Of a stretch of 64,000 nt of DNA, positions 58,366-63,947 are shown in pieces (the stretch's first letter is position 1; every line of letters begins with the position of its first letter). Source of the stretch: a virus. A program made the translations under genes and the position numbers. The stretch lies in IMG/VR virus record IMGVR_UViG_3300048591_001244, positions 1 through 64,000 of that record; one strand, given 5' to 3'. Under the pieces are notes generated by a model that searched no databases, was not told the DNA's origin, and worked only from the letters and a program-made list of their open reading frames with translations.

Positions 58366-58812
58366 ATGAAAATTGAGTCCTTTAGTTATGACGAATTGAG
58401 AGTTAACCATGAATTGTTTGATAATAAAATGGGCAAGTCACATGAGATCTTTAATATTGATTCGGAGCGTTATAAGTTGATAACCGATGCTATTTCAGTC
58501 CGGGCTAATAAGATTGTGGATACCCTACAAAAAGCTTCTGATTCAAAATCTGTACAAGAAAAGACAGATCTGCTCAAGCCGTATTTTAATGAACTCACCT
58601 TACCGGTTGTCATGACAGATCACTTACTTAAAAACAGTGAGGTGAAGTATGAGTCTGTAGAAGAGTTCTTTGTTGCTGTCCTATTGTGCGGTCAATTTTT
58701 TACTCAGACCAATCAAACTATGTCCAATAATCCTTCTGTTGCAATAACCATTAATCTAATAAACGTTGAAAACCTTTTGGAGACAAAGAAAGGAGAAGTC
58801 AATGAACAGTAG
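58366..58812 (+). CDS. Hypothetical protein
   Basis: 148-aa ORF after an A-rich leader. Confidence 0.7.
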   Translation: MKIESFSYDELRVNHELFDNKMGKSHEIFNIDSERYKLITDAISVRANKIVDTLQKASDSKSVQEKTDLLKPYFNELTLPVVMTDHLLKNSEVKYESVEEFFVAVLLCGQFFTQTNQTMSNNPSVAITINLINVENLLETKKGEVNEQ

Positions 58813-59719: not shown

Positions 59720-59844
59720 TACGTGCCGCAGCTAAACGCTGTTGGCGATTTGAAATACGAAATTATCAATCTAAAAATAAAGTAACAATGGAAAACGAAA
59801 ATTTGAATACATCAGAAGCCGCCAATAGCGATTTAGGTGCTGTT
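59720..59844 (+). repeat. attC-like hairpin 1 (left core degenerate, TAC)
   Basis: Arms 59728-59747 GCAGCTAAACGCTGTTGGCG and 59820-59840 CGCCAATAGCGATTTAGGTGC; GTT at 59842. Confidence 0.7.
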
Positions 59845-60078
59845 AGTGGCAGTAGGGATTCTCAGGAAGATTGGTATGATGATGAATATTACGAGGGACA
59901 GCCGCACGAGGATTGCCCTAAATGTGGTAGAAGCTATGACCATATTGATTTTGATTACCAAAGCTGCTCTAAATGCGGCTGGGATGCTGAAAATGAAAAA
60001 TGGACAGAAGCCCGTGAGCCATCTGATGATGATTATTTAAATGGGGGTGCGGACATTCTTACTGGAAGGTGGTATTAG
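59788..60078 (+). CDS. Cassette protein with two CxxC pairs (zinc ribbon)
   Basis: CPKC...CSKC; ATG lies in the loop of hairpin 1. Confidence 0.7.
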   Translation: MENENLNTSEAANSDLGAVSGSRDSQEDWYDDEYYEGQPHEDCPKCGRSYDHIDFDYQSCSKCGWDAENEKWTEAREPSDDDYLNGGADILTGRWY

Positions 60079-60088
60079 TATTGCCACT

Positions 60089-60212
60089 AACGTGTTTGCG
60101 CTTGGCGCAGTGGCGGATTTCGGAGCGAAAAACTTTCAAACCACCACTAAAGCTGATGCGAGGCACAATGTTGAATTAACCACTAAAACCGCCATTGAGC
60201 CAAACGCATGTT
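60089..60212 (+). repeat. attC-like hairpin 2
   Basis: AAC 60089-60091; arms 60097-60116 and 60189-60208 (17/20 complementary); GTT at 60210. Confidence 0.8.
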
Positions 60213-60386
60213 ATGCTCTCGTTGCGGTTCATTAAGCAGAACTTTCAATCGAAGCAAGGTGTTTTTAATCTTTTTTTGTGCGGTGGTCAAAAAAATATCA
60301 ACATTGAAAATCAGCACTTTAGAGATAATAATACAAATAAGTGAAAAATATTTGTAAAAATGCTTGGTGGTTACAAATAAGCGGCT

Positions 60387-60394
60387 TATATTTG
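60387..60394 (+). promoter_or_regulatory. Cassette-internal TAnnTTTG promoter
   Basis: TATATTTG with CTTG ~24 nt upstream, ahead of the ATG at 60426. Confidence 0.65.
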
Positions 60395-60425
60395 TACTGT
60401 CATTAACAATCAAAATAACAAGAAA

Positions 60426-60851
60426 ATGAAAAATTTAATCAAAAACACAATCATCAGACAAGCAATCGAATTAGGTTTTGACTTTGAACAATTCACTAAC
60501 GATGCAGATTTGCAAGAAGTAAGCGAAGCACTTATGGACTTCTTTAACGAAAATTCAGACAAGTTGCCAAAACTTGAAGATGCGTGCGAAGTAACAAGCA
60601 ACGGAAGAACACAACACGTAAGCTATGGCGATTTTTGGTCTGATGGAGAGATAGTTAATTTTTCAGACAACTGGCACAAATCACCTGAAACAAAAGTTTT
60701 TCACTCTGATTTTGTAATGGAAGATACTGACGGATTGATGAAAAATATGAACTTGTATTATTTAGTTGGCGAAACTGATTACAACGCACCTGACGGCTAC
60801 TATTACAGCAAAAGCGAAAAAAGACACGTAAAAGAAGAAGAAAATGCGTAA
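60426..60851 (+). CDS. Acidic hypothetical protein
   Basis: 141-aa ORF. Confidence 0.7.
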   Translation: MKNLIKNTIIRQAIELGFDFEQFTNDADLQEVSEALMDFFNENSDKLPKLEDACEVTSNGRTQHVSYGDFWSDGEIVNFSDNWHKSPETKVFHSDFVMEDTDGLMKNMNLYYLVGETDYNAPDGYYYSKSEKRHVKEEENA

Positions 60852-61059
60852 GATTTTTCACTTAGAAATCAAATCGGAAAGCTCCCATAAATACTACGGG
60901 AGCTTATCCGCTTTATGCTCTGAAAACCCAAATTTGGGTATTTCAAAATTCACACTTGACAGATTTGATTTTACAGAACCTTTTGAAAATGCAACTTGCA
61001 TTATCCGAAAATCAGTAATGAAAACTACTGGAAGCGTGGGAGAAAAAGTTAAATGGTAA
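60844..61059 (+). CDS. Small putative DNA-binding protein
   Basis: HKYYGSLSALC...LGISKFTL, HTH-like. Confidence 0.6.
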   Translation: MRKIFHLEIKSESSHKYYGSLSALCSENPNLGISKFTLDRFDFTEPFENATCIIRKSVMKTTGSVGEKVKW

Positions 61060-61166
61060 ATTAGAGAACAACACGAATTTAATTATTAAGTAAAAAACGC
61101 TCACTTTAGCAGTACGCCCCTGCTTTTGTATAGCGTATGTTATAGGGCGTTTTTAATTTAATCAAA

Positions 61167-61361
61167 ATGAGAACAGTAGAAGTGACAGTAACTTACAAGT
61201 ATGAGCTTGAAATTGACGACAACAACGAGATTGTCAAAGAGTATGAAAGCGAAAACGAATTATTGGTGGATTGTGCCACTTATCGTTTCTCAACAGGATT
61301 ACCTGTAATTGGTGATGGTGGGGTAAAAGTTAAGGATGTCGAATTGGTCGAGGTTTCTTAA
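61167..61361 (+). CDS. Cassette hypothetical protein
   Basis: 64 aa; bounded by inverted repeat 61139-61152 / 61360-61373. Confidence 0.7.
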   Translation: MRTVEVTVTYKYELEIDDNNEIVKEYESENELLVDCATYRFSTGLPVIGDGGVKVKDVELVEVS

Positions 61362-61370
61362 ATGCCCTAT

Positions 61371-61493
61371 AACGTAAAAGTATAAAAGCAGGTGGGGATT
61401 GAACGGCAAACACGTTTCGACTTGCACAAAACTAAATAAACAGCCGAGGTGGTTAAAAATAGCACATAACCCCACTTGATTTTATACAGTGTT
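61371..61493 (+). repeat. attC-like hairpin 3
   Basis: AAC 61371-61373; arms 61380-61397 GTATAAAAGCAGGTGGGG and 61470-61487 CCCCACTTGATTTTATAC; GTT at 61491. Confidence 0.8.
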
Positions 61494-61510
61494 GTGTGCA
61501 GTTATTTATT

Positions 61511-61831
61511 ATGTTTAAATTACATTATGCAAGTTTAGATTTAGGGAATAATGATATTCCTTGTTTTGAGTTCAAAAAACATTCTCAAATGGTTGATTTT
61601 ATTGATGAAAAATGTATCAATAGAAATGGAAAAGTTGTTTGGCTTTTGGCTAAAGAAGATTTTACAGATGTTTTTATTTCTGAAAATCATTTAAGTATTC
61701 AGGATTTTTTAAGTAAAAAAGATTGCTGGCAAACAACTGGTAATTATTTTCTTCAAGAATATACAAGTTTTGAAGATGCTTATCGTGTCGCATTAGATAT
61801 GTCAGAAATTAGTCCGCTGTGTTATTCATAA
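61511..61831 (+). CDS. Cassette hypothetical protein
   Basis: ATG at 61511; bounded by inverted repeat 61491-61505 / 61828-61842. Confidence 0.7.
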   Translation: MFKLHYASLDLGNNDIPCFEFKKHSQMVDFIDEKCINRNGKVVWLLAKEDFTDVFISENHLSIQDFLSKKDCWQTTGNYFLQEYTSFEDAYRVALDMSEISPLCYS

Positions 61832-61845
61832 TTGCACACAACATC

Positions 61846-62118
61846 ATGAACAACTATCGCTCAATTGACAAAAAAACACCTGAAGTTGTTGACAATACAA
61901 CAAATGATACATATCCTAAAACCCTATACATTCGAAATGAAGTGGGAGGAATGGTGTGGCAAGTATATCATGTTAATAACATAACAGAAGCTCTCAATCT
62001 CGTTAAAAATGCTGTTAAAAATGGATTTTATGGCAACCATACATTAGAAGACCATACAAATGAAACAGAAACATGGCCTGATTGGAGAAAAACAGCACAT
62101 CCAGACATCTTTAAATAA
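61846..62118 (+). CDS. Hypothetical protein
   Basis: In-frame ATG at 61846 of the 61819 ORF. Confidence 0.6.
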   Translation: MNNYRSIDKKTPEVVDNTTNDTYPKTLYIRNEVGGMVWQVYHVNNITEALNLVKNAVKNGFYGNHTLEDHTNETETWPDWRKTAHPDIFK

Positions 62119-62126
62119 CATAAACC

Positions 62127-62495
62127 ATGAAAATAAAAGACATACTAAAGAAATACCTTCCTTATCACATAGTAAAAGAAATAACAGAAGCTATGAAATC
62201 ACAGGGAAGAGGACACGAGCTAAATCGCTTTAATTATGCGGTAAAATCACCACATTCAATAATAGGGCTTTCATTTGAATGGGCTATAAAAAACTACTTG
62301 AATAAAAATGACATCTATAAAGATGATAGTGACTTTCAGGATATCATTATTAATTCTTTCTATAATCAACACAATGAAGAAGAAGGTCGGCTAGATGTAA
62401 ATGACAATCCCTGGAAAGACAAATTAGATTATGTACATAATCACTTCGAATTATTCTGTCAGTATGCACAAAATAACTGGAGAAAGATTAAATAA
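62127..62495 (+). CDS. Hypothetical protein
   Basis: 122-aa ORF. Confidence 0.65.
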   Translation: MKIKDILKKYLPYHIVKEITEAMKSQGRGHELNRFNYAVKSPHSIIGLSFEWAIKNYLNKNDIYKDDSDFQDIIINSFYNQHNEEEGRLDVNDNPWKDKLDYVHNHFELFCQYAQNNWRKIK

Positions 62496-62564
62496 AATAA
62501 ATTTCATCCCTCGCATCTTGGTCGGTGCGGGGGATTTATAGACGGATGGAAAACTGAAAGTAAC

Positions 62565-62960
62565 ATGATAACAGAGACAAAAGAAATATATAAGTGCGAC
62601 CATTGTAAAAAGATGTACCAAAGAAAGTCGGCTTGCATGAGGCACGAAGATGTTTGTTTTAAAAGCCCTGATTTTTTAAGACCATGCCATAGTTGCGTGA
62701 ATCTTGAAAAGAGAACCACAACCGTATTTAGCGGACGTAGTGATGAAAACGGCAATGAATATGAAATGACCGTAAACCTTATGTTCTGTAAAAAAAGAGA
62801 CTGCTTCATTCATCCACATAAAGTAGCGGTAAAGGGAAATGCTTTCGAGACTGGAGATAAAGAAAATATTGAAATGCCAAAAGAGTGTGAATTTTATGAA
62901 AATGAATATGCGTATGTGTTAAAAGACAATCTAACCCCAACCCATGAAAACCACCCCTGA
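62565..62960 (+). CDS. Cys-rich zinc-finger-like hypothetical protein
   Basis: YKCDHC...C..HE..C...CHSC. Confidence 0.7.
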   Translation: MITETKEIYKCDHCKKMYQRKSACMRHEDVCFKSPDFLRPCHSCVNLEKRTTTVFSGRSDENGNEYEMTVNLMFCKKRDCFIHPHKVAVKGNAFETGDKENIEMPKECEFYENEYAYVLKDNLTPTHENHP

Positions 62961-63405
62961 CTACTTCAACGAAATAAAATGCCCGATTGTTAGGCGCAGG
63001 GCGATAAGGAATTGCGATGAACCTGAAAAACAAGAGAGTAGTCTAAAATGGGCAATTCATGGAGGCTTCGTCTGGAGAGAAACTCCTGAAGGTGTTGCAT
63101 ACTGGAGTGAGGTTTACGAAAACCCACTCGCCCCATCCCCAGAACATCTACTACCTGATGGGTACAGGGAGGAGGCCGAGCCAAACTTGACGTTAGCAGC
63201 AGTAACGGATTTAAAAATGGAACATTCAAAACAAGAAAAAGAAATTTACGAATTAGCAGAACTTTTGATGCAGTCTGAAAACTTAGAAGCAAGTGCAACT
63301 ATCCTTCGTGATTTTGCTGAAAAATGTTACCAAGAAGGTGCAATAGATGCTCAAAATGATGCGGCAAAAGAAATACGTGAACACTATGTAGAAGGTGGTC
63401 GGTAG
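62944..63405 (+). CDS. Chimeric hypothetical protein (resident N-half plus cassette C-half)
   Basis: FVWRETPEGVAYW domain, then a cassette boundary at 63192 and an internal ATG at 63217. Confidence 0.6.
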   Translation: MKTTPDYFNEIKCPIVRRRAIRNCDEPEKQESSLKWAIHGGFVWRETPEGVAYWSEVYENPLAPSPEHLLPDGYREEAEPNLTLAAVTDLKMEHSKQEKEIYELAELLMQSENLEASATILRDFAEKCYQEGAIDAQNDAAKEIREHYVEGGR

Positions 63406-63416
63406 TTATTGCTGCT

Positions 63417-63542
63417 AACGCCCAAGCAGCTTTGCGTTCGGTGGCGTTTTTAAACCGAACGCTTCACTTAATAACAAAATTTGATATGGAAAAAAATGTA
63501 ACAACCAACACCTACCCACAGCATGACGCAAAACTGCCTGTT
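63417..63542 (+). repeat. attC-like hairpin 4
   Basis: AAC 63417-63419; GCAGCTTTGCGTTC (from 63426) pairs with GACGCAAAACTGC (to 63537); GTT at 63540. Confidence 0.75.
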
Positions 63543-63701
63543 AGCGGTAGTTATTATTGGTATTGTCGATTCACTTTCAAAGGAGATAAATGTGATTTAT
63601 ACCTTACAGAAAGAAACAACTGCAAAACATTTAAGGAACTTCGTAGATGGTGGAGAAAAGAGAAACCAAACTTAAAACTTCTGTCAGCGGTCAGGAAATA
63701 A
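63486..63701 (+). CDS. Cassette hypothetical protein, start inside hairpin 4
   Basis: MEKNVTTNTYPQHDAKLPVSGSYYWYC...; inverted repeat 63540-63555 / 63697-63712. Confidence 0.6.
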   Translation: MEKNVTTNTYPQHDAKLPVSGSYYWYCRFTFKGDKCDLYLTERNNCKTFKELRRWWRKEKPNLKLLSAVRK

Positions 63702-63709
63702 TTTCCGCT

Positions 63710-63853
63710 AACAAGCTGGTATGTGCTGTGCCAGCCACAAAATTAATAATCACGGCACTAACTTAACAGGCATAGCATATACCGTTTTCGGGCTTGGCGT
63801 TCGGTTTTGTGCGTAGGGCTTGTGGGTGGCAAAACTGACGCAAAACCCGTGTT
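63710..63853 (+). repeat. Two fused attC-like hairpins (5a and 5b)
   Basis: Arms 63718-63732/63769-63783 and 63789-63809/63830-63849; AAC at 63710, GTT at 63851. Confidence 0.75.
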
Positions 63854-63947
63854 ATATGAAGGTGGGATTTTCACGCACTACACTCGATTAGAAGCACGTA
63901 AAAAGAAAAAGAAAAAATGAGCGTGGGAAACAATTAAATCATTTAAA

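Follow-up and report, generated by a model that had tools for sequence, protein, structure and literature searches.

A probable integron-like array of mobile gene cassettes in a distant crAss-like phage, with counterparts in Bacteroidota

The region from position 59720 to genome position 64526 of a distant crAss-like phage is, with good confidence in the explanation as a whole, an array of mobile cassettes subject to integron-like site-specific recombination of a kind common to Bacteroidota and their phages. The window, that is, the whole stretch of DNA analysed, comprises positions 1 to 64,000 of the record IMGVR_UViG_3300048591_001244, and the complete phage genome contains 79 kb. The anatomy of the array, the covariation within its sites, the exact permutation, duplication and transfer of cassettes in relatives and the co-location of such arrays with a Xer-like tyrosine recombinase were demonstrated, whereas the supply of the Xer-like catalyst by the host or a co-infecting phage, the folded single-stranded DNA substrate and the excised circles are inferred. 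The initial annotation had read the region as a cassette-shuffling system, a reading now supported by rearrangements at site boundaries in relatives and by the Xer-like recombinase at the ends of homologous arrays. The features of the array are listed in Table 1.

Table 1 Features of the cassette array in the phage genome.
Feature	Coordinates	Strand	Arms (left / right)	Description
Site S0	59720..59844	+		Leftmost array site; R1 38.3 bits, E 4e-8, full length
Unit U1	59842..60091	+	59842-59854 / 60079-60091	ORF 59788-60078 (96 aa)
Site S1	60089..60212	+		Canonical, 124 nt; R1 124.5 bits
Body of S1-headed cassette	60213..61138	+		ORFs 60426-60851 (141 aa), 60844-61059 (71 aa)
Unit U2	61139..61373	+	61139-61152 / 61360-61373	ORF 61167-61361 (64 aa)
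Site S2	61371..61493	+		123 nt; R1 33.1 bits, E 1e-6; 18-bp inner stem
Unit U3	61491..61842	+	61491-61505 / 61828-61842	ORF 61511-61831 (106 aa)
Stretch without detectable site	61843..63191	+		ORFs 61846-62118, 62127-62495, 62565-62960, 62944-...
Unit U4	63192..63419	+	63192-63206 / 63405-63419	Internal ORF, ATG 63228 to 63405
Site S3	63417..63542	+		126 nt; R1 36.4 bits, E 1e-7
Unit U5	63540..63712	+	63540-63555 / 63697-63712	ORF 63486-63701 (71 aa)
Degenerate mini-unit	63718..63783	+		Arms begin GGT, end ACC (compensated core); no ORF
Site S4	63781..63853	+		Short form (~70 nt); R1 24.1 bits, E 3e-4
Unit U6	63851 to genome 64526 (past window)	+	63851-63866 / 64511-64526	ORF 63948-64445 (165 aa)

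The five inverted-repeat pairs described initially were all recovered at their positions. GTT...AAC inverted repeats of at least 13 nt with at most one mismatch occur four times, all in 59.8-63.4 kb (the fifth arm pair has two mismatches), against a mean of 0.56 per 64 kb in Markov shuffles, none of 300 of which reached four; a chance origin is excluded, and with it the objection that shuffled controls might give similar repeats. The AAC-to-GTT spans were re-measured at the values given before, 124, 123 and 126 nt for S1, S2 and S3 and 125 nt for S0, which starts with TAC and not AAC. The earlier statement that the arms bracket the ORFs needs correction for three left arms lying inside ORFs (U1, U4 and U5), the ORFs of U1 and U5 starting 54 nt upstream of the GTT. 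Each AAC is preceded by a stop codon at a distance of 11-14 nt. In all arm pairs the left G faces a right T at position 11. Over 35 intervals from one site to the next, the complementarity of cognate arms at positions 5-10 and 12-15 is 0.49-0.86, compared with 0.26-0.51 for non-cognate arms, and position 11 is G:T in 83% of the intervals and never a Watson-Crick pair. Homologous U6-like cassettes (74% protein identity) have different arms, each pair being compensated.

The sites were modelled, as had been proposed, by a new covariance model (R1, built from 40 related sites). Its matches in the 79-kb phage number exactly five, every one of them within the array and on the same strand. The consensus of the 40 sites has 18 pairs, four of them with many compensatory changes, a G:T pair invariant in 40/40, fixed mismatches and a bulge, and two inverted, similar boxes flank the central region as in the core sites of tyrosine recombinases. 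Single sites in linear context fold no better than shuffles (z from -0.6 to -1.7), so their structure is supported by covariation instead of linear folding; composites of the circular junction gain 10-12 kcal/mol in folding over the linear context for C2 and C4, and nothing for S3+U5. The site sequence, loop included, is kept across orders of Bacteroidota. The sites form a distinct, sequence-conserved Bacteroidota/phage class, as suspected in the initial annotation.

The same sites and arms are present in Flavobacterium psychrophilum phages, many uncultured viral contigs and Bacteroidota chromosomes, one of which carries at least 149 sites across ~500 kb. Near-identical Flavobacterium phages differ solely by permuted or duplicated blocks, each made of a site and the following ORF (D15, L018 and 6H show 98-100% identity block by block), and comparison of related phages bore out the expected gain, loss, duplication and reordering of units at exact site boundaries. 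Six junctions among D15, L018 and 6H, read base by base, all fall inside a shared TAACG, which sets the resolution at 5 nt. S4 together with U6 shows 99.2% identity to positions 2836-3579 of L164, a 40-kb viral contig otherwise unrelated to the phage, and the match stops at AAC. From the exact junctions and this ending it follows that the cassette is a site plus its downstream gene. Metagenome contigs hold single pieces stopping at unit or site borders. At 90-95% identity, metagenome similarity also breaks at the GTT edge, indicating that sites and units are partly uncoupled, for which gene conversion among repeated sites is merely a guess.

Breaks at both site edges are also expected from exchange or gene conversion among repeats, and the sites of different phages are 71-99% alike, so it could be suggested that the cassettes move by homologous recombination at conserved intergenic linkers, in the manner of PeSL cassettes, the hairpins being homology patches for co-infecting phages without any dedicated recombinase. 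This is regarded as highly improbable because the parents at the six junctions have only TAACG in common and diverge immediately on both sides, compensated cassette-specific arms with a fixed G:T would serve no purpose, and the arrays terminate at a tyrosine recombinase. The searches gave no close relative of the phage as a whole, and the whole array is present in no sequencing run; direct evidence of recombination in the crAss-like phage itself is absent, and its site-specific recombination is inferred from sequence comparison.

No tyrosine, serine or Y1 recombinase was detected in the complete phage genome, and PF00589 and TIGR02249 gave zero matches there at E<=1, so that the lack of an integrase first noticed in the window extends to the entire genome. 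Of the two sources considered initially for a tyrosine recombinase, the rest of the phage genome is thereby ruled out, and a Xer-like enzyme is present at homologous arrays. In G001, G003, G004, G005 and G007, chromosomal arrays with co-oriented sites, numbering from 14 up to at least 149, terminate at such a gene. In the viral contig L168 the recombinase gene lies 51 nt past the terminal AAC, and in L170 and L175 it is on the same strand, ~0.8 kb past the site following the unit. The array-associated recombinases reach 193-217 bits on TIGR02249, the cut-off being 265, with the match split in two and profile positions ~179-239 uncovered; judging from their sequences alone, they are Xer-like enzymes without the IntI-specific insertion.

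A recombinase is found in only 5 of the 38 chromosomal loci (8 kb each) and not at all in the phage, which would also suit small non-autonomous elements moved by another enzyme, such as a host nuclease or a HUH/Y1 single-strand transposase, the Xer-like gene then being no more than a frequent passenger of the arrays. The single-strand transposition of IS200/IS605 is hairpin-guided and likewise uses folded ends. Such an origin is regarded as very unlikely, given that the phage lacks a Y1 or serine recombinase, that in every fully mapped genome the best Xer-like homologue stands at the end of the array and always points the same way, and that the two inverted boxes of the site resemble tyrosine-recombinase core sites. 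The Xer-like enzyme is preferred as the catalyst, although co-location is the sole basis for this and catalysis remains an inference.

Each cassette consists of a ~124-nt structured site (or the ~70-nt short form) followed by one or two small genes flanked by cassette-specific arms, GTT-N7-GT... and ...AT-N7'-AAC. According to the proposed mechanism, excision would yield a circle that joins the right arm of a cassette through its site to its left arm, and this stretch, when single-stranded, may fold into one long imperfect hairpin. Its outer part is predicted to comprise a 15-bp stem (G:T at position 11), AAC/GTT pairs and a 4-5-nt bulge. Further in, a 4-bp helix that covaries would be separated by a C/A mismatch from a TTGGC/GCCAA helix, followed by a 9-bp inner stem containing the second G:T. 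Two AGT/ATT-containing stems are probably bound by two recombinase monomers, and strands would be exchanged within TAACG, at the 5′ boundary of the site. The crossover at G/TT assumed in the initial annotation is retained on the opposite strand and abandoned in the gene-sense orientation of the phage, where the AAC edge inside TAACG is concerned.

By the relative direction of genes and sites, the phage cassettes are mirror-oriented when set against chromosomal arrays or classical integrons. Genes in the phage lie on what is the antisense strand of chromosomal arrays, so a site precedes its gene and in two cassettes provides a start codon and an 18-codon leader: the U1 ORF takes its ATG (59788) and 18 codons from the 3′ half of S0, and the U5 ORF its ATG (63486) and 18 codons from S3. 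Start codons inside sites and the location of sites between cistrons are compatible with regulation by RNA structures instead of DNA mobility, the arms closing cistrons and the sites acting as processing, terminator or translation-control elements, and the conserved wobbles are in both cases G:T on the phage's gene-sense strand, which an RNA copy would show as G:U. Hardly any credence is given to this, since genes are antisense to the site in 32/38 chromosomal loci, where a transcript would carry A/C mismatches, the units show exact permutation, duplication and transfer as DNA, and Rfam contains no family matching the sites. A secondary RNA role for the sites is not excluded.

In Proteobacteria, integrons are the textbook example of a device for gene capture. 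The array resembles classical ones in several respects: five sites in the window are imperfect hairpins bounded by ...AAC and GTT..., the first bases of a cassette complement its own far-end box, the crossover agrees with AA/C and G/TT within the 5-nt resolution if the classical polarity is read on the strand opposite to the phage genes, and chromosomal arrays are very long, with a single recombinase gene that is terminal. Co-oriented arrays and promoter-poor single-gene cassettes are shared especially with sedentary chromosomal integrons, whose attC sites have a uniform length of 123-126 nt (Vibrio cholerae repeats). In contrast, IntI has an insertion missing from the array-associated Xer-like enzyme, the phage has no recombinase, no attI-like site was defined for the array, classical boxes are 7 bp and not 15 bp with a fixed G:T, attC is kept by structure whereas the present sites are conserved in sequence as well, and the phage genes lie on the opposite strand with the site ahead of the gene. 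PeSL cassettes of T4-type phages are mobile regulatory modules thought to act via homology, and pdif modules of Acinetobacter plasmids are Xer-dependent with conserved 28-bp double-stranded sites. Both include small accessory genes in plastic regions, bracketed by repeated structured or Xer-type sites and shuffled as modules, but long folded sites and complementary arms specific to each cassette are absent from both, and the exchange via extended homology that defines PeSL is not met by junctions sharing TAACG only.

According to IntegronFinder surveys, integrons are almost absent from Bacteroidetes (PMC9024848). Among published systems, rAID-1 clusters and phage CALINs come closest. The former, described in Bacteroidales as chromosomal immunity-gene clusters, consist of a XerD-like tyrosine recombinase followed by co-directional low-GC small genes, and their repetitive intergenic sequences were called "reminiscent of integrons" by the authors, the site anatomy, crossover point and phages not being covered (Ross et al. 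2019, bioRxiv 10.1101/471110). Membership requires a XerD-like recombinase at the 5′ end with 44% or more identity to BF9343_RS08045 (bioRxiv 10.1101/471110), which the phage, whose complete genome has no recombinase, does not fulfil. The recombinases of two rAID-1-like Bacteroides arrays share 36-48% identity with the enzymes beside the present arrays, and the intergenic sites of both follow the same grammar (...TAAC, hairpin, GCCAAAC, (A)TT, cassette-specific arms); they differ in being ~50-95 nt long and are missed by R1 even with filters off, R1 matches occurring in only 4/41 Bacteroides genomes, all isolated. CALINs, clusters of attC without integrase, have been reported in phage genomes, one of 17 being from a Polaribacter (Flavobacteriaceae) phage, with classical attC models used for detection and IntI1 for testing (Qi et al. 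2023, PMC9892861). Like the present array, they combine recombination hairpins and cassettes in clusters and occur in virulent phages without integrase. The definition (at least two attC within 4 kb by the classical attC model, no integron integrase) may be compared with the five R1 sites and no recombinase of the phage; that work does not mention Flavobacterium or crAss-like phages, the present site family, the mirror orientation or a Xer-like partner (PMC9892861).

On this evidence the phage array can be placed with a relative of the integron that does not depend on an integrase and has hardly been described. Such an equivalent system, differing in its recombinase and in the design of its sites, would operate in Bacteroidota and their lytic phages, among them relatives of the abundant crAss-like group. 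It is possible, though proposed only tentatively and with doubt still slightly prevailing, that this is a second integron lineage, independent of IntI and run by a Xer-like enzyme, in Bacteroidota chromosomes (arrays up to ~0.5 Mb) and their virulent phages including crAss-like ones, with mirror-oriented phage cassettes whose site doubles as the 5′ leader and start of the gene; in that case, one machinery could process host and phage cassettes, each expressed only in its own kind of array. The array offers a concrete, testable mechanism for the fast turnover of small early and accessory phage genes, the usual home of anti-defence functions, and it also suggests a way in which genes might pass between phage and host arrays. 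Cultured F. psychrophilum phages differing by whole cassettes make the system bench-testable.

As for individual features, S0 has a counterpart in another metagenome in which a proper ...ACACA+AC arm precedes the site (loose end at 59721). The U1 ORF contains a CxxC x2 motif, with no family match found, and metagenome contigs terminate at 60092. S1 is 71% identical to the sites of Flavobacterium phages 6H, 2A and FPSV. Parts of the array (60213-61138 and 61843-63191) are decayed or without sites. The first of these, the S1-headed cassette body, includes a Bacteroidota-type promoter-like stretch and is closed by a decayed half-site (61110-61138), with no matching right arm found; the second, with four ORFs, is either backbone or decayed cassettes, and at 63175-63191 retains GAGCCAAAC...GTT, a remnant of a site 3′ end. 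The similarity of nine metagenome contigs begins exactly at 61139, the left edge of U2, after unlike sequence, and contigs terminate at its right edge (61373/4). No site follows the AAC of U3, and a contig from run X1 begins at 61840, also after unlike sequence. The ORF upstream of U4, at 62944, runs on into this unit, where contigs from three runs begin exactly at 63192 and one stops at 63419. The mini-unit keeps G:T at position 11, and short sites homologous to S4 are present in L164 and L165. U6 is the final unit, its ORF having a weak RNase H-like match; the GTT at 63851 pairs with the right arm as the pattern predicted, again with G:T at position 11, and the array ends in AAC followed by unlike sequence.

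The virus record represents a complete genome of 79,204 bp with direct terminal repeats, of which the window comprises bases 1-64,000. Genes for the portal, the large terminase and the major head protein can be recognised, the relatives of the large terminase in GenBank belong to Crassvirales only (22–25% identity), and the phage encodes an ORF of 4509 aa. Because of these features, the label of distant crAss-like phage is fair for the source virus. No close relatives were found in IMG/VR in a search with an anchor gene (window 58,366-58,809), and therefore gain or loss of cassettes cannot be demonstrated for the whole array of this phage. The array ends at the final AAC (genome position 64,526), 3′ of which ordinary replication genes follow.

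Each of the five inverted-repeat pairs that the initial annotation had described around the ORFs is present at exactly the position claimed. Inverted repeats of the form GTT...AAC with a length of at least 13 nt and no more than one mismatch occur four times, all inside 3.6 kb; in 300 shuffles the mean was 0.56 per 64 kb, and none of them reached four. In every arm pair, position 11 places G against T. For the GTT at 63,851 this pattern foresaw a partner, which was found outside the window at genome position 64,511-64,526, again with G:T at position 11. The arms were also tested in 35 intervals from seven loci, by comparing the 18 nt that follow the GTT of each site with the 18 nt that lead up to the AAC of the site after it, complementarity playing no part in the selection. 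Cognate arms were Watson–Crick complementary at positions 5-10 and 12-15 in 49–86% of cases versus 26–51% for non-cognate ones, and position 11 was G:T in 83% of the intervals and Watson–Crick in none. Cassettes homologous to the last unit, U6 (74% protein identity), which were retrieved through protein similarity alone, have different arm sequences, each right arm compensating its own left arm with the G:T kept. Since the arm sequences vary while complementarity and the fixed mismatches stay, such arms make sense only if both pair on one strand. If the parts of a cassette are linked as an excised circle would link them, with the site between the right and the left arm, the whole folds as a single continuous hairpin. 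For two cassettes this fold is favoured over the linear context by 10–12 kcal/mol; a third showed no gain and a fourth had no linear form for comparison. A single site folded in linear context has a z of only −0.6 to −1.7, and therefore folding energy alone is not evidence.

A gene-less mini-unit with arms starting with GGT and ending with ACC is located at 63,718-63,783, 5 nt from the preceding AAC, and in its core a compensated G-C pair takes the place of the T-A pair that is otherwise universally conserved. The arms of U6 (window 63,851-63,935 and genome 64,450-64,526) extend into an inverted repeat that is imperfect and about 80 nt long. Within it lie the 19-nt run A5GA5GA6T and an exact inverse copy of this run, and the direct repeat GAGCGTGGG flanks the U6 ORF on both sides; these repeats may represent a nested second repeat system.

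A BLASTN search with the array region gave a match at 60,080-60,219 only, to the Flavobacterium psychrophilum phages 6H, 2A and FPSV-D15/D17/D35 with about 71% identity. The 17-base core pattern of the element S1 (second site of the table) led to 38 viral contigs, with true elements in about 24 of them, and to at least 120 loci in bacterial genomes; the complete element, 122–126 nt from AAC to GTT, is found in about 40 of the bacterial loci among the matches listed, all of them in low-GC Bacteroidota. Chance matches in high-GC genomes possess neither the element nor an arm pair and serve as an internal control. The match in locus L044, labelled 'Bacteroides sp.', was rejected as a chance match to the core pattern. 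The alignment of 40 elements contains 18 consensus pairs, with many compensatory double changes in a 4-bp helix and one further pair; the G:T pair in AGT/ATT is invariant (40/40), and a C/A mismatch and a 5′ bulge of 4–5 nt are fixed. The covariance model derived from this alignment (R1) detects sites at exactly five positions of the phage genome, each of them on the plus strand and within the array. The AAC-to-GTT spans, reported earlier as nearly constant, are exactly 125, 124, 123 and 126 nt and coincide with sites of the model. No Rfam family was found at the sites, the only matches (E of about 2–3.5) being located elsewhere in the region.

Sites, contig edges and chromosomal arrays with their recombinase genes (the latter from whole-genome mapping)
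Feature	Location	Strand	Remark
R1 site	59720-59844	+	125 nt
R1 site (S1)	60089-60212	+	
R1 site	61371-61493	+	
R1 site	63417-63542	+	
R1 site (S4)	63781-63853	+	short form
Metagenome contig ends	60092, 61138/61139, 61373-4, 61840, 63192, 63419, 63786		
Site array, chromosome G001 (CP058707.1)	3,480,328-3,982,496	one strand	at least 149 sites; Xer-like recombinase 3.3 kb past last site, opposite strand
Site array, chromosome G003		co-oriented	Xer-like recombinase at array end, opposite strand
Site array, chromosome G004		co-oriented	Xer-like recombinase at array end, opposite strand
Site array, G005 (F. aciduliphilum)		co-oriented	Xer-like recombinase at array end, opposite strand
Site array, G007 (Bacteroidales MAG)		co-oriented	Xer-like recombinase at array end, opposite strand

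In the 124-nt sites, a loop of about 70 nt (columns ~30–100 of the alignment) shows conservation from one order of Bacteroidota to another, which attC loops do not. It holds roughly three copies of a motif resembling CACAAA-GTTCAAT, perhaps a binding site for an accessory protein.

In FPSV-D15, eight units with their sites cover 3.7 kb without any intervening sequence. Compared with D15, the related viral contig L018 and phage 6H contain blocks that are 98–100% identical but permuted, one being absent and one new, and 6H carries one block twice. Every block consists of a site and the unit 3′ of it. At six junctions read base by base, the recombinant corresponds to one parent up to TAACG and to the other beyond, the parents being unlike on both sides of these five shared bases. 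Because just TAACG is shared at all six, exchange in the Flavobacterium phage arrays is, judging by these alignments, site-specific and not homologous. The block of S4 and U6 in our phage (63,783-64,526) has a counterpart with 99.2% identity at L164:2836-3579, part of a 40-kb viral contig, where it is located inside a different array; the match stops exactly at AAC, and the two have nothing else in common within the 6.5 kb examined. Metagenomes of sludge, freshwater, wastewater and landfill contain contigs with single pieces of the array, and at the break at 63,786 another unit's ...CACAAC stands directly before. Similarity in these older comparisons with the metagenome contigs breaks at the GTT edge too, which is attributed to gene conversion among repeated sites but has not been shown. 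No sequencing run contained more than one fifth of the array's sampled words; all runs are stored as contigs, and the uncovered parts are uninformative. The units could also be read as simple mini-transposons with terminal inverted repeats, which was rejected as the site travels with the unit 3′ of it and each unit has arms of its own.

One 5.3-kb activated-sludge contig joins 61,980 to 62,181 with 12 ambiguous bases, and in this 200-nt deletion variant the regions of a 90-aa and a 122-aa ORF are fused.

The observation behind the initial annotation is real and its integron-like reading stands, but the cassette frame, proposed there as an ORF with its downstream site, has to be shifted by one site. 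In the gene-sense orientation of the phage, the crossover inferred from the junctions is at the AAC edge, which makes the cassette a site with its downstream ORF. This explains why U1 and U5 start 54 nt upstream of their GTT; the X unit of D15 does likewise, and one of the units in L164 starts 22 codons upstream of its GTT. The start codon and the leader in the 3′ half of the site belong to the same cassette as the gene body, and the arm GTT AGY GGY AGT is translated as VSGS. On the opposite strand, the AAC-edge crossover is G|TT, in agreement with integron geometry. The genes are on the strand opposite to the site in 32 of 38 chromosomal loci, and 12 of 17 viral contigs have them on the same strand as the site; thus the phage arrays are mirror images of the chromosomal ones. 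Ten cargo proteins (the 71-aa ORF at 60,844-61,059 was left out) gave nothing in Pfam and PHROGs beyond one weak RNase H-like match and two PHROGs of unknown function, and TBLASTN of the cargo against all fetched chromosomal loci revealed no shared cassette.

The 153-aa ORF at 62,944-63,405 is a read-through fusion in which a gene lying upstream continues across a decayed site remnant (63,175-63,191) and the left arm of unit U4, whose stop it shares, the own ATG of U4 being at 63,228. A cassette of FPSV-D15 (L005:2664-3373), also present in 6H, codes for a protein with a KxDG nucleotidyl-transferase motif, RNA-ligase-like by eye, and the site at its head is the one that most resembles S1.

No tyrosine recombinase, integron integrase, serine recombinase or Y1 transposase was detected in the complete phage at E ≤ 1, with positive controls. 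Phage_integrase, together with Phage_int_SAM_4, is the Pfam family that occurs most often in the 98 long ORFs close to chromosomal sites. The array-associated recombinases are Xer/IntI-like with scores below the cut-offs, and they match the integron-integrase model in two separate parts that leave out the region of the IntI-specific insertion. A full-length homologue of this Xer-like enzyme (35–39% identity) is present in viral contigs L168, L170 and L175, and L026 has a fragment of 62 aa; these genes are on the cassette strand past the last unit of the array, that of L168 beginning 51 nt 3′ of the terminal AAC. The co-location of the Xer-like enzyme with the arrays is strongly supported, while catalysis is inferred, and neither recombination nor the substrate strand nor the enzyme has been shown experimentally.

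The array and recombinase of G001, Bacteroidota bacterium SSA2, occupy 3,480,328-3,986,832, about 500 kb or roughly 12% of the chromosome; if real, this array would be among the largest cassette arrays known.

The rAID-1 system was described in Bacteroidales by Ross et al. (2019, bioRxiv 10.1101/471110) without site anatomy or mention of phages. In two Bacteroides rAID-like arrays, the neighbouring recombinases are homologous (36–48% identity) and the sites are short with the same grammar, yet R1 detects no site there, so kinship is plausible but unproven. Qi et al. (2023, PMC9892861) reported 17 classical-model CALINs in phages, none of them in Flavobacterium or crAss-like phages, and IntegronFinder 2.0 found almost no integrons in Bacteroidetes (PMC9024848). 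A literature search revealed no paper on this site family, its crossover point or mirror-oriented phage arrays.

The Polaribacter phages Freya_1 to Freya_10 (L186/L187, MT732463-MT732472) are ten isolates of one phage, and a stretch of small ORFs immediately before an integrase gene accounts for differences of 0 to 4.1 kb among them; this integrase is 29% identical to the phage Xer-like enzyme. Freya has arm-like GTT...AAC repeats, in which position 11 is G:T, but no site that R1 detects, and may represent a further subtype of the system in cultured phages.
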